A stretch of 11,770 nt of DNA, taken from the UHGV virus genome UHGV-0308383, one strand, 5' to 3'. This DNA comes from a virus. Position 1 is the stretch's first letter; each line of letters begins with the position of its first letter. The notes below the pieces were generated by a model. The model was not told where the DNA came from. It ran no database searches and saw nothing but the letters and a program-made list of their open reading frames with translations. A program made the position numbers and the translations under genes. Positions 4,049 through 11,770 of the stretch are shown in pieces.

Positions 4049-4334
4049 CGTTAAACTCTCTGACGAAGAAATAGTTGACTTTATTATTACCTACCATAAG
4101 GTCAAAGCAGGTATTCTCAAAAGGTTTGTTGTAGGCATCGTATGAAACATATGGGTCAGCTACTTGCTTAGTGCTTAACTTCTTACTTGATGGATTTAAG
4201 AGGCCACCATACAGATTCTTGATAGCCTCTTCTACAACAGACCAGATGATTTCGTCAGTAATTTCTTCGTACAGGTCAAGTTCACGCTCTAGTGAGAAGT
4301 CACAAATAGGGAAAATAACCTGTACTTTACTCAT
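4041..4334 (-). CDS. Hypothetical protein, 97 aa
   Basis: ATG at 4332..4334; overlapping start-stop arrangement. Confidence 0.7.
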   Translation of the reverse strand: MSKVQVIFPICDFSLERELDLYEEITDEIIWSVVEEAIKNLYGGLLNPSSKKLSTKQVADPYVSYDAYNKPFENTCFDLMVGNNKVNYFFVREFNDE

Positions 4335-4729
4335 TAACGGATAACCTGTGTGACTTGAATTGCTTCAGTTACTGATAAATCACCTACTTTCTCTTCTTTG
4401 ATAAAGGTGAAGGTGAGTTCAACAGGTTCTTGCTCTTCTTGCTCAACTTGAATACCATTAAGCTCATCAAAGATTGATTGAGTTGTCCAGTCTTCTCCAC
4501 CATCTGGATAGTGGATTGCATAAAGAGGAAACTCTAAATTATACCAAGCAAAAACAGGGCAACCATCTGCATCATCTCGACATCTGTGGAGATATGTGTT
4601 TGTACCTTCAAAATGCAAATGAAGATTACCATTCTTCTCAAATAGAAGAGCATCTTGCAGGTCTAATTCTTCATTTTCACTGTAACGACTGACATCAACT
4701 TTAACGTGGATATGACTGCTATTATTCAT
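4334..4729 (-). CDS. Hypothetical acidic protein, 131 aa
   Basis: ATG at 4727..4729; 1-nt stop/start overlap with the downstream gene. Confidence 0.7.
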   Translation of the reverse strand: MNNSSHIHVKVDVSRYSENEELDLQDALLFEKNGNLHLHFEGTNTYLHRCRDDADGCPVFAWYNLEFPLYAIHYPDGGEDWTTQSIFDELNGIQVEQEEQEPVELTFTFIKEEKVGDLSVTEAIQVTQVIR

Positions 4730-5171: not shown

Positions 5172-5636
5172 TTACTTTGGATATACACTGTCAAGATAAA
5201 TGTTAGCTTCCATTCTACGTCTATTTTTCAGGCCGTTTGAAGTGACCTTCTCACCTTTGACTGTAATCTTGTTCCACCACTGCATAGCTTCTGCACAACC
5301 TACCTTATTACCAGCATTGTGGCGCTTAATAAATGTAGAATCCTGCATAGCTGTGATACCAATGTTGTATGTTTCACTTACAAGTGCATCGAACTCATTC
5401 TGAGAGGTTGGAACCTTGATAGCTTTGTTCACTGCTGCAACAAACTTTTCAACATCTGCGAGAAGATACTGTTCAGCTTGTCCAGCCGTGATTTTCATAC
5501 CCATCTTAACAGGTTTTCCGTCAATACGGATTGTACCATACCCGATTGTTGGGATTCCGGCAGAGTCTTTGTAAGCCTCTAACTTCAGACCTTCAAAGAA
5601 CTTAATGGCTTCTAAGCCTTTTCTTGAGAGTTGCAT
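5172..5636 (-). CDS. Endolysin: phage lysozyme (glycoside hydrolase family 24, P22 gp19 / lambda R / T4 e type), 154 aa, no signal or SAR segment
   Basis: Motifs FEGLKLEAYKDSAGIPTIGYGT (catalytic Glu/Asp/Thr region) and GLKNRRRMEANIY are typical of this lysozyme family (recognised by eye); strong GGGGAGG Shine-Dalgarno; ATG overlaps the upstream stop (TAATG). Confidence 0.9.
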   Translation of the reverse strand: MQLSRKGLEAIKFFEGLKLEAYKDSAGIPTIGYGTIRIDGKPVKMGMKITAGQAEQYLLADVEKFVAAVNKAIKVPTSQNEFDALVSETYNIGITAMQDSTFIKRHNAGNKVGCAEAMQWWNKITVKGEKVTSNGLKNRRRMEANIYLDSVYPK

Positions 5637-6769
5637 TATGCCTCCCCTGTTGGGTTAACTGTAACTGTTGCCGCATTAGATGTTACAGAGCCACCTGCAC
5701 CAGTCACTACGCAAGTGTAGCTTCCTGCATCAGCAGCAGTTGCACCTTCTTTGGTGTAAGTTGCAGTCATTGCGTCTGGGATGTTTTCCTCACCCTTCTT
5801 CCACTGGTAACCTGTCGCACCTGTTGCCACAACGTTGAGTGTCAATGTCTCACCTTCAGTGATTTCTTGATTAGTTGGCTGTTGAGTGATTACAGGAAGT
5901 GCTTTAACGGTTACTGTTGCAGGGCTAGAAGTAACGGAACCACCTGCACCTGTTACAACGCAAGTATATGAACCTGCATCTGCTGGTAGTGCGCCAGACT
6001 TGCTATAAGTAGCGTTTGTAGCTGAAGGAATATTAGAGCCATCTTTCTTCCACTGATAGCCCGTTGCACCTGTGGCAGTCACTTCCAAGCTAATGTTGCC
6101 ACCTTCATTGATGGTCTGGCTAGAAGGTTGTTTGGTAATCACTGGTAAAGCGTTCACAGTAACTGTTGCTTCATCTGAGGTAACGCTTGTTCCAGCCTCT
6201 CCAGATACAACACAAGTGTATGAGCCAGCGTCAGAAGGTACTACAGATTGTTTTGTGTAAGTTGCAGAAGTGGCACTGGGGATATCCTCACCATCCTTCT
6301 TCCACTGATATCCAGTGGCGTTAGTTGCTAGAACACTTAGAGTAAGTGTGCCACCCTCATTGACTGTTTGTCCTGTTGGTTGCTGAGTAATTGCTGGTGG
6401 CTTAATAGCATCCTTCAGCTTAGCATTCAACATTGAGAATGGCTTCACTCTTGCCAGCCATTCACAGTAAATTGTGTCAACATCTTTACCGTTGATAATT
6501 GCATACTGTAAATCCATGAAGAAATCAGCAGTTCTCATCTGCGCGCCGACGCTGTAAAGGAGTTCATCACTAAATGGAACTTTGTAGTCTGGTTTGTAAT
6601 CAAACTTCTCAACTTCTGCAATATCAGCTTCAGGCCAATATGAACTATAGGTAAGTGGTAAAATAGCTTCTTGATATGTTCTAAAATCATATCTCTTACC
6701 AGCCTTTACATTTGCAATGAAGCCCTTTACAAATTCTTTGAAGTCTGGGTAAGTCTTTGCTTTAATCAT
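5636..6769 (-). CDS. Protein with three tandem Ig-like (I-set-like) domains at the C-terminus and an N-terminal domain paralogous to CDS 6766..7137; candidate virion-decoration or adhesion protein
   Basis: Three ~80-aa repeats with the pattern QP..Q...EG..L.L.V.ATGATGYQWKKDG..IP.AT.ATY.K.....ADAGSYTCVV.G.GGSVTS..ATVTV; N-terminal 130 aa aligns with 6766..7137 (MDLQYAI vs MDIQYVI, YWPEAD vs KWPEED). Confidence 0.85.
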   Translation of the reverse strand: MIKAKTYPDFKEFVKGFIANVKAGKRYDFRTYQEAILPLTYSSYWPEADIAEVEKFDYKPDYKVPFSDELLYSVGAQMRTADFFMDLQYAIINGKDVDTIYCEWLARVKPFSMLNAKLKDAIKPPAITQQPTGQTVNEGGTLTLSVLATNATGYQWKKDGEDIPSATSATYTKQSVVPSDAGSYTCVVSGEAGTSVTSDEATVTVNALPVITKQPSSQTINEGGNISLEVTATGATGYQWKKDGSNIPSATNATYSKSGALPADAGSYTCVVTGAGGSVTSSPATVTVKALPVITQQPTNQEITEGETLTLNVVATGATGYQWKKGEENIPDAMTATYTKEGATAADAGSYTCVVTGAGGSVTSNAATVTVNPTGEA

Positions 6770-7137
6770 TTCTTTTTAGCCTCTAAACGTGCGTTTAATC
6801 TAAAATAGCCTTTATGTTGTGGAGACACATCACTAACAACAATACCTTCAACTTTATAGCCCTTACCAATTACATACTGGATATCCATAAGAAACGTACC
6901 AAGCCCAACAATGTGGAACATCGGGTATAGTAACTTATCTGAATCTGGGAGTTTAATTTCTGGGTTATAGGCGGGTTGTTCGGCAGTTGGTGTAATATCC
7001 TCTTCAGGCCATTTACTCATTCTCCATGTTAAAGGTGATGCAATAACATCGTTGAGATTATATCTTTCACCATTCTCCACGGAGTGGATATAGGATTGTA
7101 GGAAGCAGTAAAAGTCTTTTGCACTCTTAGCCTTCAT
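6766..7137 (-). CDS. Hypothetical protein, 123 aa; paralog of the N-terminal domain of CDS 5636..6769
   Basis: ATG at 7135..7137 with AAGGAT upstream; ATGA overlap with the downstream start; clear paralogy seen by eye. Confidence 0.8.
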   Translation of the reverse strand: MKAKSAKDFYCFLQSYIHSVENGERYNLNDVIASPLTWRMSKWPEEDITPTAEQPAYNPEIKLPDSDKLLYPMFHIVGLGTFLMDIQYVIGKGYKVEGIVVSDVSPQHKGYFRLNARLEAKKK

Positions 7138-7147
7138 TAAATATCCT

Positions 7148-7176
7148 TATAAATAGAGAAAGGGGCATCAGCCCCT
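7148..7176 (-). terminator. Terminator-like hairpin on the minus strand (AGGGGC-UGAU-GCCCCU) followed by a U-rich tract
   Basis: Stem 7161..7166 / 7171..7176; minus-strand downstream sequence TTCTCTATTTAT; lies between CDS 7185..7775 and 6766..7137. Confidence 0.5.
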
Positions 7177-7184
7177 GTTTATAC

Positions 7185-7775
7185 TTAAGCTTTGGTCTTA
7201 AGTAGGTTCTTAAGTTTTTTGAGATTCATGCTCTCGTCAAACTTAAAACCAAATCCATTGACATAATCAATGAACTCGGATTTCTTACTCAGTGATAGTG
7301 CGTAACTCATATCGAAGTTATTACTTGTTTCTGCATCTGGACTAGAGTTCACATCAAATGAAATTTCTGTAGGCTCTTGCTTGCTACTTCTCATATTATC
7401 AATCAATAGACAGGTATAGTTTGCTGGATAGAAGTTAACACTACCATCAACATATCCATACTTGTTATTGTGAATAAGGCTGGAAAATACCTTAAGAAAT
7501 GTTTCTGATTCGTGGCATACAAGTTTGAATTGACTGCATTCTCCAAGAGCCACTAAAGAGTAAGGACTTTCACTATCAATGTCGTAGTTTGGGTTTGATG
7601 TTGTAACCGTCACACGCATCAGGTTATTTGCAATAGTCTTCTGCTTAAAAGAATTTTGAACATAGTGAAGACCTCTATCACACTGATTGACTAGCTCTTT
7701 AAGAAGGTCATTTGCATATGGTGAATTAATTGATACAGAGCCATCACTATTGTAATTAAAACTTACTGTTAACAT
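7185..7775 (-). CDS. Hypothetical protein, 196 aa
   Basis: ATG at 7773..7775 preceded by AGGAGA. Confidence 0.75.
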   Translation of the reverse strand: MLTVSFNYNSDGSVSINSPYANDLLKELVNQCDRGLHYVQNSFKQKTIANNLMRVTVTTSNPNYDIDSESPYSLVALGECSQFKLVCHESETFLKVFSSLIHNNKYGYVDGSVNFYPANYTCLLIDNMRSSKQEPTEISFDVNSSPDAETSNNFDMSYALSLSKKSEFIDYVNGFGFKFDESMNLKKLKNLLKTKA

Positions 7776-8002
7776 TTTTCAGTTCTCCTGCGATTTATAA
7801 TTTTGCTGCAATAGAGAAACGAAGTAAACTCACTGGAAGAAACCATTAAGTGTTGTTCACTAGATTGAGCCATTGCCCTGAAATACATTCCAGTCAAAGC
7901 ATCATAGTGACTATTCTTTCCAATTGAGGTTATATAGCCATGACTCTTTGCAGTTTGATATAAATCTATAATATCTGCGATTTCTAATTGGGAACTACAC
8001 AT
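7769..8002 (-). CDS. Hypothetical protein, 77 aa
   Basis: ATG at 8000..8002 preceded by AAGAGGA; overlaps neighbours by 7 and 19 nt. Confidence 0.55.
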   Translation of the reverse strand: MCSSQLEIADIIDLYQTAKSHGYITSIGKNSHYDALTGMYFRAMAQSSEQHLMVSSSEFTSFLYCSKIINRRRTEKC

Positions 8003-8145
8003 AGATAATCCTCTTGTCTTCTGTAATTTTGAAAGAACAGGTACAGACCAATTTCAGAGGATGAATAGTAGATTAACTCTACCCTTTTTGATTCCTTACA
8101 GTGATTGGTATTCTTACCTTTCTTCGGTTTATTTGATTTTCTCAT
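7984..8145 (-). CDS. Small basic protein, 53 aa (MRKSNKPKKGKNTNH...); first gene of the leftward operon. The track's 7984..8166 ORF begins at a TTG; the ATG at 8143..8145 has a much better ribosome-binding site
   Basis: AAGGAG lies 5 nt upstream of the ATG at 8143..8145. Confidence 0.55.
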   Translation of the reverse strand: MRKSNKPKKGKNTNHCKESKRVELIYYSSSEIGLYLFFQNYRRQEDYLCVVPN

Positions 8146-8190
8146 TAAGTCTCCTTTGTAGAACAAGGCAGACCTACAGCTTTAACTAAG

Positions 8191-8219
8191 ATGGTACAGT
8201 AATCCATACAACAAGTCAA
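8191..8219 (-). promoter_or_regulatory. Candidate sigma70-type promoter for the leftward operon: -35 TTGACT (complement of 8214..8219), 17-bp spacer, -10 TACCAT (complement of 8191..8196), T/A-rich UP-like tract upstream
   Basis: Minus strand reads CTTTTTTAACTTGCAATAGTTCTTGACT-N17-TACCAT; the GTTCTTGAC context resembles the plus-strand promoter at 10373. Confidence 0.35.
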
Positions 8220-8244
8220 GAACTATTGCAAGTTAAAAAAGTTG

Positions 8245-8281
8245 TTGACAAAGTACTTGACAAGGTGTAGGCTTATAAATA
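8245..8281 (+). promoter_or_regulatory. Promoter-like region upstream of CDS 8395..8766: tandem TTGACA boxes (8245..8250, 8257..8262) after an A-rich tract, and TATAAATA (8274..8281), which matches the phage T4 late-promoter consensus
   Basis: Motifs seen in sequence; spacing from either TTGACA to a good -10 hexamer is non-canonical, so the promoter class is uncertain. Confidence 0.35.
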
Positions 8282-8394
8282 CTTAGAAGATAACTTAAAA
8301 GGTTCCTCTAAAAAGGCTATTTAAACAGATATCTTTCTGGATATCTATCTTTTATCTTAAAAGCCTTTTAAGAGGTCTTATAAGAGGCATACCA

Positions 8395-8766
8395 ATGAAA
8401 AACAGAACAAACAAAGGCCAGTTTAAAAAAGGCCAGTCTGGTAACCCATCTGGAAGACCGAAAGGTTCACGTAACAAAAGCTCACTCGTAAAAGCTCAAC
8501 TGACCATTGATAATTCTGCTGAGTTCGCTGCAAAGCTGTTTGAGGCGATTGTTACAAGGGATGCGGCTAAGCTTGCAGAGTTCGGGTTAAACACAGATGA
8601 CGTAACCATCAAGAGTATGATTGAGGTCGGTAAAACTATCTTTACTCACTCAGCAGGTGAGATGAAAGCACTTGCAGCAGACACTAAGAAGACTCCTGAT
8701 AATGGTGGTCAACAACAGACAGATAACAAACCAACGTTCTCTGCTGTAGCGACTCTCAAAAAATAA
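8395..8766 (+). CDS. Small basic protein, 123 aa, with the N-terminal motif KGQFKKGQSGNPSGRPKGSRN (resembles the GNPxGRPKG motif of the phage DUF5681 family, from memory)
   Basis: ATG at 8395 with AAGAGG upstream; basic N-terminus, Gln-rich acidic C-terminus. Confidence 0.75.
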   Translation: MKNRTNKGQFKKGQSGNPSGRPKGSRNKSSLVKAQLTIDNSAEFAAKLFEAIVTRDAAKLAEFGLNTDDVTIKSMIEVGKTIFTHSAGEMKALAADTKKTPDNGGQQQTDNKPTFSAVATLKK

Positions 8767-8778
8767 TTTTAAAAGGTG

Positions 8779-8814
8779 TTGACAGACTCTACAAAGTTGC
8801 TCTAAAGTCTGTCA
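8779..8814 (+). promoter_or_regulatory. Candidate sigma70 promoter (A-rich UP, TTGACA 8779..8784, 18-bp spacer, TAAAGT 8803..8808) embedded in a perfect 9-bp inverted repeat (TGACAGACT 8780..8788 / AGTCTGTCA 8806..8814)
   Basis: Seen in sequence; located between the two plus-strand genes. Confidence 0.45.
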
Positions 8815-8847
8815 CATCAAACAACAAATGAGAGAAGAGAGTAAAAT

Positions 8848-10263
8848 ATGAGCGAGTTATTTAAACATGCGCACCTTCATGCAGGTCGAACTGAAAATGG
8901 TGCTGTAAACCATACTTCATCAATGTCTGCTCTGGTAGACTTCTACAAAGCCGCTGGCTCAAGCCGTAGCAATGTAGAAATCTTACCAGACCTGTTCTAC
9001 AAAGCTTTGCGTGAGGATGTTGATGTTGCAGTTCGTATTTTACTGCATATGCGAGATGTACGAGAAGGTATGGGTGAGCGTAAAGCTTTCAGAACTGTTT
9101 TACTTCAAGCAATCGAAGACAAAGTTTTAGAACCTACACAGGTACTTCGTATTATGGATAAGGTTGCAGAACTTGGTCGTTTTGATGACTTCAAAATCTT
9201 CGTAGGCACTCGTTTTGAGACAGATGCCTTCAAACATTTAGAAGCAGCGTTACTAGACCCTGCAACAGCAGGTTTAGCAGCCAAGTGGCTACCACGAGTA
9301 AAACCACGCCACAAACAGTTTGTAAAACGTTTCTGTAAGTTTGCAAACTTAAGCGAGAAAGAGTACCGAACACTGCTATCTGCACTGTCTGATACGGTTG
9401 AGCAAAAAATCTCTGCTAATGAGTTTGGTAAGATTGACTACAGCAAGATTCCTTCACTCGCTGCTGCACGTTACCAAAAACTCTTTAACCGTAAAGATGG
9501 AGAACGCTACAAAGCTTACATCGAGTCATTATCAAAAGGTGAGGCTAAGATTAACGCTGGTGCTATTTACCCATACGATGTGATTAAATCTATTAAGTAT
9601 GGTAATGCAGATGTTGCTAATGAACAGTGGAAAGCACTTCCAAACTGGATGGCAGAAGGTGAGAACATCTTGTGTATGACTGATGTCTCAAGCTCAATGT
9701 CTTGGGTGAATTTCGGTTCAATCACGGCTCTTGATATTGGTGTATCTCTTGCCCTGTATGTAGCAGAACGCAACACAGGCTGCTTTAAGAATGAGTTAAT
9801 GGTTTATTCAACAAACCCTCACTTCATCGAACTGAGTGGTGATTTACGAAACCGTCATCGTCAGGTAATGCGTTATACTGAATATGGTTCAACTAACTTG
9901 CAAGCAGCTTTTGACCGCATTCTTGAGACAGGTAAGAGAAACAACTTGACTCAGAAAGATATGCCAAGTAAGCTTATCATCTTCTCTGATATGGAGTTCA
10001 ATCAGGTTGACGGTGCAAATGGTTGTACAAACTTTGAAGCAATTCGTAGTAAGTACAAAAAAGCTGGATACGAAATGCCACAACTGGTATTCTGGTACTT
10101 AGCAAACCGTAATGGTACTTGCGAAGTGTCTGTTAAGGATAACGGTGTAGCAATGGTATCAGGGTTCTCTCCAGCCACTTTAAAAGCTCTGCTTGGTGGT
10201 GAGAAGTTTGACCCAACCAGCGTAATGCTCAAAGCAGTAATGATTGACCGTTACATCTGGTAA
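8848..10263 (+). CDS. DUF2828-like protein, 471 aa: N-terminal helical region with a TENGA...LVDFY motif and a C-terminal von Willebrand factor A-like domain with a MIDAS-type motif
   Basis: MIDAS-like D-x-S-x-S (ILCMTDVSSSMS) and a later hydrophobic strand plus SD (LIIFSDMEF); N-terminal TENGAVNHTSSMSALVDFY...LRED...ILLHMRDVREGMGERKAF resembles the DUF2828 family (recalled, not searched); AGAAGAGAG upstream. Confidence 0.85.
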   Translation: MSELFKHAHLHAGRTENGAVNHTSSMSALVDFYKAAGSSRSNVEILPDLFYKALREDVDVAVRILLHMRDVREGMGERKAFRTVLLQAIEDKVLEPTQVLRIMDKVAELGRFDDFKIFVGTRFETDAFKHLEAALLDPATAGLAAKWLPRVKPRHKQFVKRFCKFANLSEKEYRTLLSALSDTVEQKISANEFGKIDYSKIPSLAAARYQKLFNRKDGERYKAYIESLSKGEAKINAGAIYPYDVIKSIKYGNADVANEQWKALPNWMAEGENILCMTDVSSSMSWVNFGSITALDIGVSLALYVAERNTGCFKNELMVYSTNPHFIELSGDLRNRHRQVMRYTEYGSTNLQAAFDRILETGKRNNLTQKDMPSKLIIFSDMEFNQVDGANGCTNFEAIRSKYKKAGYEMPQLVFWYLANRNGTCEVSVKDNGVAMVSGFSPATLKALLGGEKFDPTSVMLKAVMIDRYIW

Positions 10264-10276
10264 AAAGTTTTAAAAA

Positions 10277-10310
10277 GGGTATTGACAATATGTTTAATAC
10301 CCTTTAATAT
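10277..10310 (+). promoter_or_regulatory. Near-consensus sigma70 promoter: A-rich UP, TTGACA (10282..10287), 17-bp spacer, TAATAT (10305..10310); the -35 region lies inside a 7-bp-stem hairpin (GGGTATT 10277..10283 / AATACCC 10296..10302) that may also terminate CDS 8848..10263
   Basis: Motifs and spacing seen in sequence. Confidence 0.55.
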
Positions 10311-10372
10311 GTTCTACATAGAAACGAAATGAGAGCTTTTCTAAGATACTGAAAAATATTTTAAAAAAGTTC

Positions 10373-10405
10373 TTGACAACCACTAAAAAATAATGTTAAA
10401 GTGGT
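10373..10405 (+). promoter_or_regulatory. Candidate sigma70 promoter for the tRNA cluster: A-rich UP, TTGACA (10373..10378), 18-bp spacer, TAAAGT (10397..10402); overlaps a hairpin (ACCACT 10379..10384 / AGTGGT 10400..10405)
   Basis: Same TTGACA-N18-TAAAGT architecture as the element at 8779; about 25 nt upstream of the first tRNA. Confidence 0.45.
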
Positions 10406-10427
10406 TACATAGAGTTTGAAAAGTTTA

Positions 10428-10505
10428 TCTCTGTTTAGCTCAGCTTGGTAGAGCGTTCCGTTTGGGGCGGTAAGGCCGGAGGTTCAAGTCCTCCAACAGA
10501 GACCA
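10428..10505 (+). tRNA. tRNA-Pro (anticodon UGG), CCA encoded
   Basis: Manual cloverleaf: 7-bp acceptor stem, D-arm GCTC/GAGC with GG, anticodon loop TTTGGGG (anticodon 10463..10465), T-arm GGAGG-TTCAAGT-CCTCC; one T-T mismatch in the anticodon stem. Confidence 0.8.
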
Positions 10506-10512
10506 AATTAAT

Positions 10513-10590
10513 GTTCCAGTAGACAAAATGGTAAAGTCACCACTCTTTCAAAGTGGATATCTGAGGGTTCAAATCCCTTCTGGAACGCCA
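10513..10590 (+). tRNA. tRNA-Glu (anticodon UUC), CCA encoded, discriminator G
   Basis: Acceptor GTTCCAG/CTGGAAC, anticodon arm CCACT-CTTTCAA-AGTGG, T-loop TTCAAAT. Confidence 0.75.
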
Positions 10591-10597
10591 GTTTTGA

Positions 10598-10670
10598 CAG
10601 AAGACCAATTACAGCAAACTTAATCTTATTCATCTGAAGGTAAATCGGACAAAGAAGAGATTTGGTCTGG
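10598..10670 (+). repeat. Inter-tRNA repeat module I: CAGAAGACCAA-TTACAGCAA...TTGGTCTGG with a 7-bp terminal stem (AGACCAA 10602..10608 / TTGGTCT 10662..10668)
   Basis: Shares 5' and 3' motifs and terminal complementarity with modules II-IV. Confidence 0.6.
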
Positions 10671-10681
10671 TCATTAAGAAT

Positions 10682-10758
10682 TGCGGGTATAGAGAAAGGG
10701 CGTCTCACATGTCTCATTAGCATGGTATCGGCAGGTTCGACTCCTGCACCCGCCTCCA
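10682..10758 (+). tRNA. tRNA with anticodon CAU (Met or lysidine-dependent Ile2), CCA encoded; noncanonical acceptor (T1-C72 mismatch or 6-bp stem) and U at position 37
   Basis: D-arm GAGA-AAGGGCG-TCTC, anticodon arm CATGT-CTCATTA-GCATG (anticodon 10715..10717), T-arm GCAGG-TTCGACT-CCTGC, then ACCCGCC-T-CCA. Confidence 0.55.
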
Positions 10759-10764
10759 ATTTTG

Positions 10765-10824
10765 CAGAAGACCGTATTCAGCAACAAAATACTTTTTGCG
10801 GATAAAAGAAAAAACACGGTCTGG
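10765..10824 (+). repeat. Inter-tRNA repeat module II: CAGAAGACCGT-ATTCAGCAA...ACGGTCTGG with a 7-bp terminal stem (AGACCGT 10769..10775 / ACGGTCT 10816..10822)
   Basis: Same architecture as modules I, III and IV. Confidence 0.6.
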
Positions 10825-10835
10825 CAATGTATTAA

Positions 10836-10912
10836 GGTTAGGAAGCACATAAGGTATGTGCGGTCGCCTGTTAAGCGAATGGCACAGGGTTCGAATCCCT
10901 GACTAACCGCCA
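10836..10912 (+). tRNA. tRNA-Asn (anticodon GUU), CCA encoded
   Basis: Acceptor GGTTAGG/ACTAACC (one G-A mismatch), D-arm GCAC/GTGC, anticodon loop CTGTTAA, T-arm CAGGG-TTCGAAT-CCCTG, discriminator G. Confidence 0.7.
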
Positions 10913-10920
10913 AATTAAAT

Positions 10921-11008
10921 GTGTCGTTATCCCGTAGATGGTAGCGGTGGGGACTGTAAATCTCTTGTCATTGAGACTCGGTAGGTTCGACTCCTACACG
11001 GCACACCA
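10921..11008 (+). tRNA. tRNA-Tyr (anticodon GUA), class II with a long variable arm, CCA encoded
   Basis: 85 nt plus CCA; acceptor GTGTCGT/ACGGCAC (one G-U pair), anticodon arm GGGGA-CTGTAAA-TCTCT, variable-arm hairpin GTC/GAC, T-arm GTAGG-TTCGACT-CCTAC. Confidence 0.75.
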
Positions 11009-11013
11009 ATAAA

Positions 11014-11091
11014 GGTTATGTAGTTTAATCTGGTTAAAATACTCCCCTGTCACGGGAGATGATGAGGGTTCAAATCCCTTCGTAACCGCCA
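11014..11091 (+). tRNA. tRNA-Asp (anticodon GUC), CCA encoded, discriminator G
   Basis: Acceptor GGTTATG/CGTAACC (one G-U pair), anticodon arm CTCCC-CTGTCAC-GGGAG, T-arm GAGGG-TTCAAAT-CCCTT. Confidence 0.75.
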
Positions 11092-11179
11092 AATTATAAT
11101 AAGTATTTCAAAATGATGTTTTGAGAGGGCTATTTAGCCCCTCCCTTAAAGAGTTCTTACGAGTATTCTTTAAAGGAGC

Positions 11180-11255
11180 GGAAGACCAAATTCAGCAAAT
11201 ATGTATGATATTTTCAAGCCAATTTAATTTTGAAAAAATTTAAAACTTGGTCTGG
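11180..11255 (+). repeat. Inter-tRNA repeat module III: GGAAGACCAA-ATTCAGCAA...TTGGTCTGG with a 7-bp terminal stem (AGACCAA 11183..11189 / TTGGTCT 11247..11253)
   Basis: Same architecture as modules I, II and IV. Confidence 0.6.
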
Positions 11256-11268
11256 CTCAACAAATTTA

Positions 11269-11401
11269 CAGAAGACCGTTTACAGCAAAAACTTAAACAA
11301 TCTATTTCTCCGGTAAAGAAAAGGCGAAGGTTCGATTCCTTCACTCGGCAGATGTCGAGTTGGTGTAATGGTAGCACTTAAGATGATAAACAACGGTCTG
11401 G
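11269..11401 (+). repeat. Inter-tRNA repeat module IV (expanded, 133 nt): CAGAAGACCGTT-TACAGCAA...AACGGTCTGG with an 8-bp terminal stem, enclosing split tRNA-like fragments
   Basis: AGACCGTT 11273..11280 pairs with AACGGTCT 11392..11399; same end motifs as modules I-III. Confidence 0.6.
11326..11377 (+). pseudogene. Split, circularly permuted tRNA-like remnant: T-arm plus 3' acceptor strand (GAAGG-TTCGATT-CCTTC-ACTCGGC) sits immediately upstream of the complementary 5' acceptor strand plus D-arm (GTCGAGT-TG-GTGT-AATGGTA-GCAC)
   Basis: ACTCGGC (11343..11349) is complementary to GTCGAGT (11354..11360) with one G-U pair; no intact anticodon arm found by eye. Confidence 0.4.
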
Positions 11402-11420
11402 TAATTATCTTTGTAGATAA
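11402..11420. repeat. 19-bp direct repeat AATTATCTTTGTAGATAAG (second copy at 11648..11666); near-palindromic core TTATCT-TTGT-AGATAA
   Basis: Identical 19-mers seen at both positions. Confidence 0.7.
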
Positions 11421-11422
11421 GT

Positions 11423-11503
11423 TATTAAGCTTACCTGTGAGTATGCGACCACAAAGGGTGGATGGGTAAATTCTAGATTTAAACCCAAAAAGGCACATCG
11501 CTA
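11423..11503. repeat. Left arm of a perfect 81-bp inverted repeat (partner 11690..11770, truncated by the window end)
   Basis: Reverse complement of 11690..11770 equals 11423..11503; identity breaks at 11504 versus 11689. Confidence 0.85.
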
Positions 11504-11566: not shown

Positions 11567-11642
11567 TGGTAGAAGTGGAGGGATTCGAACCCATCGCCTG
11601 TCAGATTAAAAGTCTGCCGCATCACCATTCTGCTACACTTCC
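11567..11642 (-). tRNA. tRNA-like gene on the minus strand, anticodon UUU (Lys-like), CCA encoded; noncanonical T-stem (3 G-C pairs flanked by mismatches) and G1-U72
   Basis: Minus strand reads GGAAGTG-TA-GCAGAATGGTGATGC-G-GCAGA-CTTTTAA-TCTGA-...GGG-TTCGAAT-CCC...CACTTCT-A-CCA; the anticodon loop matches the tRNA-Lys pattern. Confidence 0.5.
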
Positions 11643-11689: not shown

Positions 11690-11770
11690 TAGCGATGTGC
11701 CTTTTTGGGTTTAAATCTAGAATTTACCCATCCACCCTTTGTGGTCGCATACTCACAGGTAAGCTTAATA
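11690..11770. repeat. Right arm of the perfect 81-bp inverted repeat (partner 11423..11503); runs to the window end
   Basis: Exact reverse complement of the left arm. Confidence 0.85.

Follow-up and report, generated by a model that had tools for sequence, protein, structure and literature searches.

A divergent Ro60-like protein and candidate Y-like RNAs in the tRNA array of a Felix O1-type phage

The locus and its Ro60-like protein

We analysed a stretch of 11,770 nucleotides (nt) from the UHGV virus genome UHGV-0308383 (the window), in which two plus-strand open reading frames (ORFs), 8395-8766 and 8848-10263, lie upstream of a tRNA cluster, just where a sequence-only reading had placed them. 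The window derives from a phage of the Felix O1 type (genus Felixounavirus, Ounavirinae): it shares 97% identity with Escherichia phage JH2 over bases 8200-10400, and the region with both genes is covered in 251 of 253 matching phage records, all of them Felixounavirus-like. A leftward operon, coding for an endolysin and a protein with three immunoglobulin (Ig) domains, meets the rightward unit at ~8200-8390, and in JH2 the rightward unit runs from a DUF5681 gene through a DUF2828 gene, 26 tRNA genes and a few small ORFs to the large terminase and the portal. The explanation we favour, and consider likely, is that the DUF2828 protein is a Ro60-type ring, that four RNA elements among the tRNAs, termed E1-E4, are its ligands, and that the DUF5681 protein is a separate small terminase. 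The features of the locus are listed below, R1 being a covariance model built from 15 aligned long-form copies of the RNA elements.

8395-8766, plus strand: DUF5681 ORF coding for a basic protein of 123 amino acids (aa) (Pfam DUF5681, E 2.3e-14; phrog_4114)
8779-8808, plus strand: promoter-like site between both genes, TTGACA, 18 nt, TAAAGT (consensus match only)
8848-10263, plus strand: ORF of the Ro60-like protein, 471 aa, with a predicted N-terminal helical-repeat ring (DUF2828) and a C-terminal vWA domain with MIDAS (DUF7788); orthologue of Bas63 gp130
10282-10402, plus strand: two promoter-like sites, 10282-10310 and 10373-10402, ahead of the array of tRNAs and Y-like RNAs (consensus scan)
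10429-11091, plus strand: six tRNA genes (Pro, Glu, Met, Asn, Tyr, Asp), interleaved with E1 and E2 (ARAGORN, Rfam)
10595-10673, plus strand: E1, candidate short Y-like RNA with an outer stem of 4 base pairs (bp), AGA bulge, 7-bp stem AGACCAA/UUGGUCU, then UUACAGCAA (fold; R1 27.3 bits)
10762-10827, plus strand: E2, candidate short Y-like RNA with the architecture of E1 and a stem, AGACCGU/ACGGUCU, compensatory to that of E1 (fold, motif scan, R1)
11176-11258, plus strand: E3, candidate short Y-like RNA, GGA bulge in the window (fold, motif scan; weak R1 match, 14.9 bits, E 0.3)
11266-11404, plus strand: E4, candidate long YrlA-like RNA (fold; permuted tRNA scan; R1 90.9 bits)

The 471-aa protein matches Pfam DUF2828 (E 3.2e-29; 102.5 bits, cut-off 29) and DUF7788, a vWA-type domain (E 3.3e-43; 147.9 bits, cut-off 27.1), and it matches phrog_850, which carries the label 'RNA-binding protein', with an E of 7.7e-183. 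Pfam profile searches thus bear out the vWA/MIDAS and DUF2828 assignments first proposed from the letters, and likewise that of the smaller protein to DUF5681. The MIDAS residues D279-x-S281-x-S283, T349 and D381 are invariant in an alignment of 40 homologues with identities down to 43%, and NCBIfam gave no match for either the 123-aa or the 471-aa protein. An AlphaFold2 model based on the family alignment (predicted local distance difference test, pLDDT, 89; predicted template modelling score, pTM, 0.89) places a vWA domain after a ring of helical repeats, arranged as in Ro60. When this model was compared with the Protein Data Bank (PDB) by Foldseek, the top 12 matches were all full-length Ro60 (Xenopus, human, Thermus phage phiLo, Deinococcus Rsr), with TM-scores up to 0.66, and matches to the vWA domain only, which include Ku80, midasin and integrins, came after them with E > 1e-3.

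Searches at the level of sequence weigh against a Ro60 assignment. The 471-aa protein matched neither Pfam TROVE (PF05731) nor vWA_Ro60 (PF25045) at E <= 1, with the positive control Bxz1 gp220 matching both (9e-50 and 4e-54, respectively); hhalign of the family profile against Bxz1 gp220 was marginal (probability 57%, E 1e-4, 86 columns around the MIDAS motif); and PDB sequence searches with the single protein as well as with the family profile returned nothing relevant. The speculative parallel to Ro60 drawn by the sequence-only reading proves right at the level of the fold, though the protein has no Pfam match to TROVE. We conclude from the predicted structure that the 471-aa protein, in which a vWA/MIDAS domain closes a ring of helical repeats, is of the Ro60 type but divergent, and that it belongs to the DUF2828/DUF7788 family and not to TROVE. 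Its identity as Ro60-like was already known before the present analysis, and the earlier remark that the protein has no established function is out of date. The protein may bind Y RNAs or misfolded RNAs, the adjacency of gene and RNAs alone pointing to this.

The DUF2828 family comprises 8,815 representatives at 50% identity; from an exhaustive profile search the best 150 matches were examined. Homologues occur in 710 phage records, among them mycobacteriophages and phages of Listeria, Staphylococcus, Enterococcus, Campylobacter, Vibrio and Bacillus, and the mycobacteriophage members are annotated as 'Ro-like RNA binding protein'. No paper on DUF2828 function as such was found in the searchable literature.

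Candidate Y-like RNAs at DUF2828 genes

The tRNA array begins at 10429, 166 nt past the stop codon of the 471-aa gene, with all six tRNAs on the plus strand. Among the tRNAs, 332-1141 nt downstream of the gene and also on the plus strand, lie the four unannotated elements E1-E4. They share a common design: an outer stem of 4 bp and a bulge of three purines lead into a stem of 7-8 bp, AGACCNN/NNGGUCU, whose variable pairs differ compensatorily between copies and which is followed by UNCAGCAA and a variable interior. E4 is built, in this order, from a closing stem, UACAGCAA, a variable hairpin, a T arm (GGUUCGAUUCC), a closed 7-bp acceptor-like hairpin, a D arm with an AAUGGUA loop and the second strand of the closing stem. 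E1 occupies the spacer between tRNA-Glu and tRNA-Met and E2 that between tRNA-Met and tRNA-Asn, leaving 3-8 nt. E1 is kept in JH2, in five Felix-type loci from IMG/VR and in Bas63, and in a motif scan of related loci the exact Felix-type motif GAAGACC...GGTCT was confined to Felixounavirus. Rfam, run on the window at gathering and at permissive thresholds, reported no Y RNA family at E <= 10, and on E4 it recognised only a partial tRNA at 11293-11343. E1-E4 are the probable RNA ligands of the Ro60-like protein.

Two further observations concern this part of the array. An HNH homing-endonuclease gene is inserted in the 820-bp E1-E4 stretch of several Felixounavirus relatives and splits the match in two. 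The window also has a G+C-rich hairpin, GAGAGGGCUAUUUAGCCCCUCCC, at 11125-11147, flanked by tRNA-Asp and E3; it lacks a U-tract and was not called by the terminator scan.

The RNA class extends well beyond Felixounavirus. We compared 80 viral contigs with DUF2828 homologues, most of them at 39-47% identity, in which all tRNAs are located on the strand of the gene. A permuted scan for a T arm, a closed acceptor hairpin and a D arm yielded 29 matches on the gene's strand and 0 on the other strand; several of the 29 are duplicate loci, and three were dropped, two being tandem tRNAs with similar acceptor stems (L032, L066) and one an unconfirmed call at the start of L085. In 15 aligned non-redundant copies a covarying closing stem is followed by the conserved UUNCAGCAA, with UGAUA or UGUUA on the 3' side. 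Searching 1.1 Mb with R1 gave 138 matches at E <= 1, spread over 78 sources and without exception on the gene's strand. Many of these are short forms of 60-75 nt that keep stem and motif and lack the tRNA-like part. Of the 77 non-Felix loci, 42 carry a non-tRNA R1 match no more than 500 nt from their DUF2828 gene, and 55 of 101 non-tRNA matches fall within the gene-nearest 7.6% of flank bases (p = 8e-35). R1 matches are still present in 22 of 42 loci without any tRNA, and a control of 440 kb of phage DNA without DUF2828 contained 2 weak matches.

The predicted helices are conserved by covariation. In the long class (27 homologues, all four helices) 94.6% of the cells are paired, compared to 60.2% in shuffles and 36-44% with the partner slid, and 205 double changes are seen where 57 are expected. 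The corresponding values for the short class are 97.4% versus 61.5% for pairing and 99 versus 29 for double changes. The permuted scan, the R1 model and the covariation together substantiate the link to tRNA-like noncoding RNAs that the sequence-only reading had raised. These data also bear on the idea that the elements have no function and represent selfish repeats or tRNA pseudogenes in decay. E4 does have tRNA-like arms, part of it is scored as a weak tRNA by Rfam, and homing-endonuclease genes insert in the region in some relatives, but compensatory changes keep all four helices, the non-tRNA UUNCAGCAA is conserved between phages whose proteins are just 29-45% identical, and elements are present at loci that have no tRNA at all, which renders this idea highly improbable.

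The position of the RNAs relative to the gene varies between phages. In mycobacteriophage Whirlwind an R1 RNA (81.6 bits) lies 100 nt past the DUF2828 gene, a Staphylococcus phage has two copies directly past it, and the Listeria phages A511 and CKA15 have three tandem copies directly before it. Cronobacter phage S13 (L095) carries a match of 70.7 bits at 6942-7071 and a weaker second one of 35 bits at 7149-7294. Just past the DUF2828 gene of S13, at 6896-7138, a 121-nt 'tRNA-Ser' and a 113-nt 'tRNA-OTHER' are annotated that overlap the 70.7-bit match, and both are probably mis-annotated. In the 143-kb phage contig L002 (1-5566) a cluster for NAD salvage (transporter of nicotinamide mononucleotide, NadR-like protein, phosphoribosyl pyrophosphate synthetase, NAPRTase) stands upstream of the DUF2828 gene, and several Y-like matches, two of them strong and of the long form, 14 tRNAs and an IS605 OrfB/Cas12f-like TnpB gene stand downstream of it. 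As far as the searchable literature shows, the RNA class appears to be new.

Known systems of Ro60 or Rsr with YrlA-type RNAs are Salmonella rsr-yrlBA-rtcBA, Deinococcus Rsr-Yrn1-PNPase, mycobacteriophage Bxz1 gp220 and the Ro60-Yrl1/2 system of Thermus phage phiLo. The predicted fold of the 471-aa protein has the same two domains in the same arrangement as Ro60/Rsr, with a MIDAS motif in both, and here, too, the partner RNA would be encoded on the same strand within a few hundred bases of the gene. E1-E4 lie within the range that Chen et al. 2014 used to recognise Y RNAs, i.e. on the same strand and <= 4 kb from the Ro60 gene. The tRNA-like layout of YrlA, a stable RNA, has been described (PMC4201824), and E4 follows the same order of variable hairpin, T arm, acceptor hairpin and D arm inside a stem of the 5' and 3' ends with a conserved motif on the 5' side. 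Long and short forms coexist in our phages like YrlA and YrlB, and the A511 gene adjoins RtcB and an RNA ligase, recalling the Salmonella operon. The differences are equally clear. The 471-aa protein, Whirlwind gp55 and A511 gp178 match DUF2828 and DUF7788 and thus form a separate sequence family, the 471-aa protein is shorter than Ro60/Rsr (~530-550 aa), and the RNAs are interleaved with tRNA genes, unlike those of the known systems. Because R1 detects the YrlA of Bxz1, which stands beside a true TROVE protein, by its tRNA-like part only (26 bits), with the CAGCAA module missing, the RNA partners of the TROVE and DUF2828 families are, judged by their sequences, related yet distinct.

Several points speak against E1-E4 and their relatives as Y-like ligands. 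The canonical Y RNA motif near the 5' end, GNCGAAN0-1G, is absent, the conserved motif here being UUNCAGCAA. E3 scores only weakly with R1, and about one third of the DUF2828 loci have no R1 match, Vibrio phages nt-1 and phi-pp2 showing no convincing one. The alignments used for covariation come from a structure-aware search and lean towards pairing, a bias of which the conserved unpaired motif and the gene-side position are independent. Finally, we infer, rather than observe, the binding, expression and processing of E1-E4.

Position could also be read in another way, namely that E1-E4 and their relatives are cis elements, either autoregulatory operators in the mRNA of the gene or hairpins for processing or insulation of tRNA precursors. 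Many short copies are indeed found 20-50 nt from the stop or start codon of the gene, as expected for untranslated regions, and E1 and E2 fill tRNA spacers and have no terminator U-tracts. In the window, however, the elements are 330-1140 nt away from the gene, behind two promoter-like sites and between tRNAs whose processing would free them; several loci have two to five copies; and the long form keeps a complete tRNA-like elbow as in the stable RNA YrlA (PMC4201824). Operators, too, would have to be bound by the protein. We consider cis elements an unlikely alternative to RNA ligands.

A member of the same protein family, CKA15_055 of a Listeria phage, has been studied before (PMC12282133). 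It shows 29% identity to A511 gp178 and its gene lies downstream of tRNAs on the same strand; its authors proposed Y RNAs, reported abundant non-coding transcripts nearby and detected the protein in purified virions (PMC12282133). We asked if the Y-like elements of A511 and CKA15 correspond to these abundant transcripts and rejected this, as the one abundant region with stated coordinates, 26,236-26,727, coincides with a ROOL RNA (scored on the A511 sequence), the three Y-like elements of CKA15 being located at 25,283-25,572, directly upstream of the gene. The ROOL RNA of A511 (Rfam RF03087; L091, 3465-4016; 87.5 bits, E 9e-18, just below the gathering score of 99.1) is preceded by a strong promoter and placed between tRNA-Pro and the Ro-like gene; its position is that of the most transcribed 'non-coding region' of CKA15, which that paper left unidentified. 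Two other features of A511 may be recorded here: at 4305-4375 Rfam finds a tRNA (52.5 bits) within a coding sequence annotated 'ribosome associated inhibitor A; zinc finger domain', and the interval 7809-11455, downstream of the Ro-like gene, forms an RNA-repair neighbourhood in which an RtcB-type 'tRNA splicing ligase' and an RNA ligase are accompanied by an HD phosphohydrolase and a 'tRNA amidotransferase'.

The DUF5681 gene and its surroundings

The sequence-only reading had combined the small basic protein and the vWA protein into a co-transcribed functional module that acts early. Both genes are on the same strand and adjacent, with 81 nt and no predicted terminator between them, and the pair is kept in 251 Felixounavirus records and in a lineage of 47% identity (L005, L012). 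By family profile, however, DUF5681 accompanies DUF2828 in these Ounavirinae-type loci only; a profile search found no DUF5681 homologue within 8 kb in ~75 other, non-Ounavirinae DUF2828 loci, nor does any protein family regularly adjoin DUF2828 there, the most frequent one occurring at 16 of 75 loci. In addition, DUF5681 genes elsewhere abut large terminases, a promoter-like site separates the two genes, and the orthologue gp130 acts alone in T7 (see below). A functional module of both proteins is hence quite unlikely. Co-transcription is possible and not required, because the promoter-like site at 8779 falls between the genes.

The promoters themselves, described as strong and sigma70-type at the outset, fared unevenly. 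Perfect TTGACA hexamers are present at 8779, 10282 and 10373, but promoter-like sites in total are not more frequent than in shuffled sequence (8 found, 7.6 expected), and the promoter scan found no consensus site upstream of the small gene at 8395. The site at 10282-10310 sits within a 12-bp hairpin (10274-10305).

The context of DUF5681 in other phages suggests a different role for the 123-aa protein. In distant phages DUF5681 genes are located directly upstream of the large terminase and overlap its start: in 63 of 74 non-Felix DUF5681 loci from IMG/VR an ORF of 385-450 aa overlaps or abuts the DUF5681 stop codon, and 40 of 45 tested downstream ORFs match Pfam Terminase_3, with matches to T7-type terminase domains among others. 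In Staphylococcus phage S-CoN_Ph1 a bona fide small subunit of the Terminase_4 family is encoded upstream of the DUF2828 gene, in the place taken here by DUF5681, and the DUF2828 gene is followed by a tRNA and the large terminase. S-CoN_Ph1 (L096, 4348-11428) and JH2 (L001, 9196-18362), two unrelated 88-kb phages, thus display the same order of small terminase or DUF5681 gene, Ro-like gene, tRNA(s) and large terminase; a homing endonuclease additionally interrupts the large terminase gene of S-CoN_Ph1. The 123-aa protein carries GNPSGRPKG in a basic N-terminal arm, which is followed by two long predicted helices, and so resembles small terminases in these elements and in its small size, and family-wide in genomic position. 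It differs from them in that, in a JH2-type phage, the Ro-like gene and the tRNA array separate it from the large terminase, which in JH2 follows the array together with the portal.

Some results disagree with a small terminase. The 123-aa protein matches no small-terminase family of Pfam, its model is poor (pLDDT 67), and Foldseek gave nothing significant for this model, with a best E of 2.6 and the small terminases of G20c and P74-26 at E 4-5. Moreover, the DUF5681 gene is ~7 kb away from the large terminase as measured in JH2, the terminase being outside the window. Nevertheless, because DUF5681 genes elsewhere abut the large terminase, the 123-aa protein is probably a small terminase subunit and not a partner of the Ro60-like protein. 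On this reading the Ro-like gene and the island of tRNAs and Y-like RNAs would have been inserted between the genes for the small and the large terminase. The terminase reading of DUF5681, which takes function from gene order, appears to be new.

Two regions of the window away from these genes deserve mention. Its right end folds back, as the arms 11423-11503 and 11690-11770 (81 nt each, 186 nt apart) are 100% complementary and the second arm reaches the last base of the window. The tRNA-Lys(UUU) at 11567-11642 is on the minus strand in the window and on the plus strand in JH2, and from ~11567 on the window is the reverse complement of the JH2 order, preceded by ~63 nt without a JH2 counterpart. 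This pattern is more suggestive of a fold-back artefact from assembly than of a simple inversion. In the leftward operon, a 377-aa protein (5636-6769, minus strand) has three Ig domains of the eukaryotic type (Ig_3, 5e-33; Ig_2; I-set); its gene lies within a stretch of raised G+C content (0.44-0.47 versus ~0.37), and its counterpart varies in length, being a 'tail protein' of 211 aa in JH2 and an 'immunoglobulin-like domain protein' of 461 aa in Bas63.

Counter-defence and a possible Ro60-like particle

The 471-aa protein has an orthologue of 97.0% identity, gp130 of Bas63 (Escherichia phage JohannRWettstein), whose gene likewise lies between a DUF5681 gene and tRNA-Pro. In a PhageMaP preprint gp130 was found to counter the Ppl defence system (bioRxiv 10.1101/2024.10.10.617714), in line with the anti-defence role that had been suggested from the sequence. 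Deletion of gp130 led to tiny plaques on ppl hosts, complementation restored the plaques, and gp130 alone, either plasmid-borne or within T7, rescued T7 on a ppl host (bioRxiv 10.1101/2024.10.10.617714). The same preprint published the Ro60 similarity of gp130 and its location upstream of tRNA genes, of which 'some' 'are possibly Y RNAs'. Whereas the preprint thereby proposed annotated tRNA genes as Y RNAs, our candidates are in the gaps between the tRNAs. In Bas63 they are partly located beneath two hypothetical coding sequences on the minus strand, bas63_0137 and bas63_0138 (L178, 4577-4851), the former overlapping E3 and E4 and the latter lying just past E4; both are likely spurious calls.

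The T7 experiments argue against a need for the RNAs. T7 lacks RNAs of the E1-E4 type, so that either these RNAs are dispensable for the anti-Ppl phenotype or host RNAs substitute for them. The protein might thus act against defence systems by protein-protein contact without RNA, for instance with its MIDAS face on Ppl, and the neighbouring RNAs would be unrelated to this. Such a mode of action retains real weight because gp130 rescues T7 alone; vWA/MIDAS domains are classical protein-binding modules, the vWA-only fold matches to Ku80, midasin and integrins fit this, and the role of the MIDAS in Ro60 itself is unclear (PMC12135203). It leaves unexplained, however, why a structured RNA is encoded within 500 nt on the gene's strand in phages of proteobacteria, firmicutes and actinobacteria, and why the whole Ro60 ring is conserved and not just the vWA domain. 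We therefore regard an RNA-free mechanism as rather unlikely, though as the most serious competitor to a Ro60-type ring with RNA ligands, and note that RNA-free and RNA-dependent roles are not mutually exclusive.

From the observed domain content, RNA structure conservation, gene-RNA adjacency and terminase synteny and from the modelled fold, we infer how a Ro60-type ring with E1-E4 as ligands might work. The RNAs E1-E4 would be transcribed together with the tRNAs from promoters at 10282 and 10373. E1 and E2 could be freed by host enzymes that trim the flanking tRNAs; because both fill the spacers between tRNAs to within 3-8 nt, ordinary tRNA end-processing would be enough for their release. 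The Ro60-like protein would then bind E1-E4 via the bulged stem and the CAGCAA motif, the bulged helix with a 5' strand that continues into single-stranded UUNCAGCAA substituting for the Ro-binding module found in Y RNAs. By analogy to Ro60-Y RNA-PNPase particles, the bound RNA may gate the ring or tether it to another factor, such as a host exoribonuclease, and the resulting particle might act on structured or damaged RNA during infection.

A wider hypothesis, which we put forward tentatively, is that DUF2828 proteins and RNAs of the CAGCAA type constitute a second, phage-borne Ro-Y lineage across hundreds of phage genera that serves general counter-defence or RNA surveillance. The tRNA-like or A-rich module might recruit or decoy a host enzyme, for example an exoribonuclease, an enzyme of tRNA processing or a defence nuclease directed at tRNAs, and the placement of the system beside tRNA arrays, between the small and large terminase genes in two lineages and, as a virion protein, in CKA15 may reflect delivery at the very start of infection.

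The conservation of Ro60 and Y RNAs reaches from bacteria to humans, yet their role in bacteria and phages is poorly understood. For Bas63 gp130 and Listeria CKA15_055 two recent papers guessed at Y RNAs near a Ro60-like phage protein, and the RNAs were not identified. The RNA class described here supplies concrete candidates and a testable binding motif, with one member of the protein family having a genetically tractable counter-defence phenotype. It also points to mis-annotations, namely over-long 'tRNAs' and spurious small ORFs that cover Y-like RNAs. For Felix O1-type phages, which are used in the biocontrol of Salmonella and E. coli, the analysis moreover suggests the identity of the small terminase.

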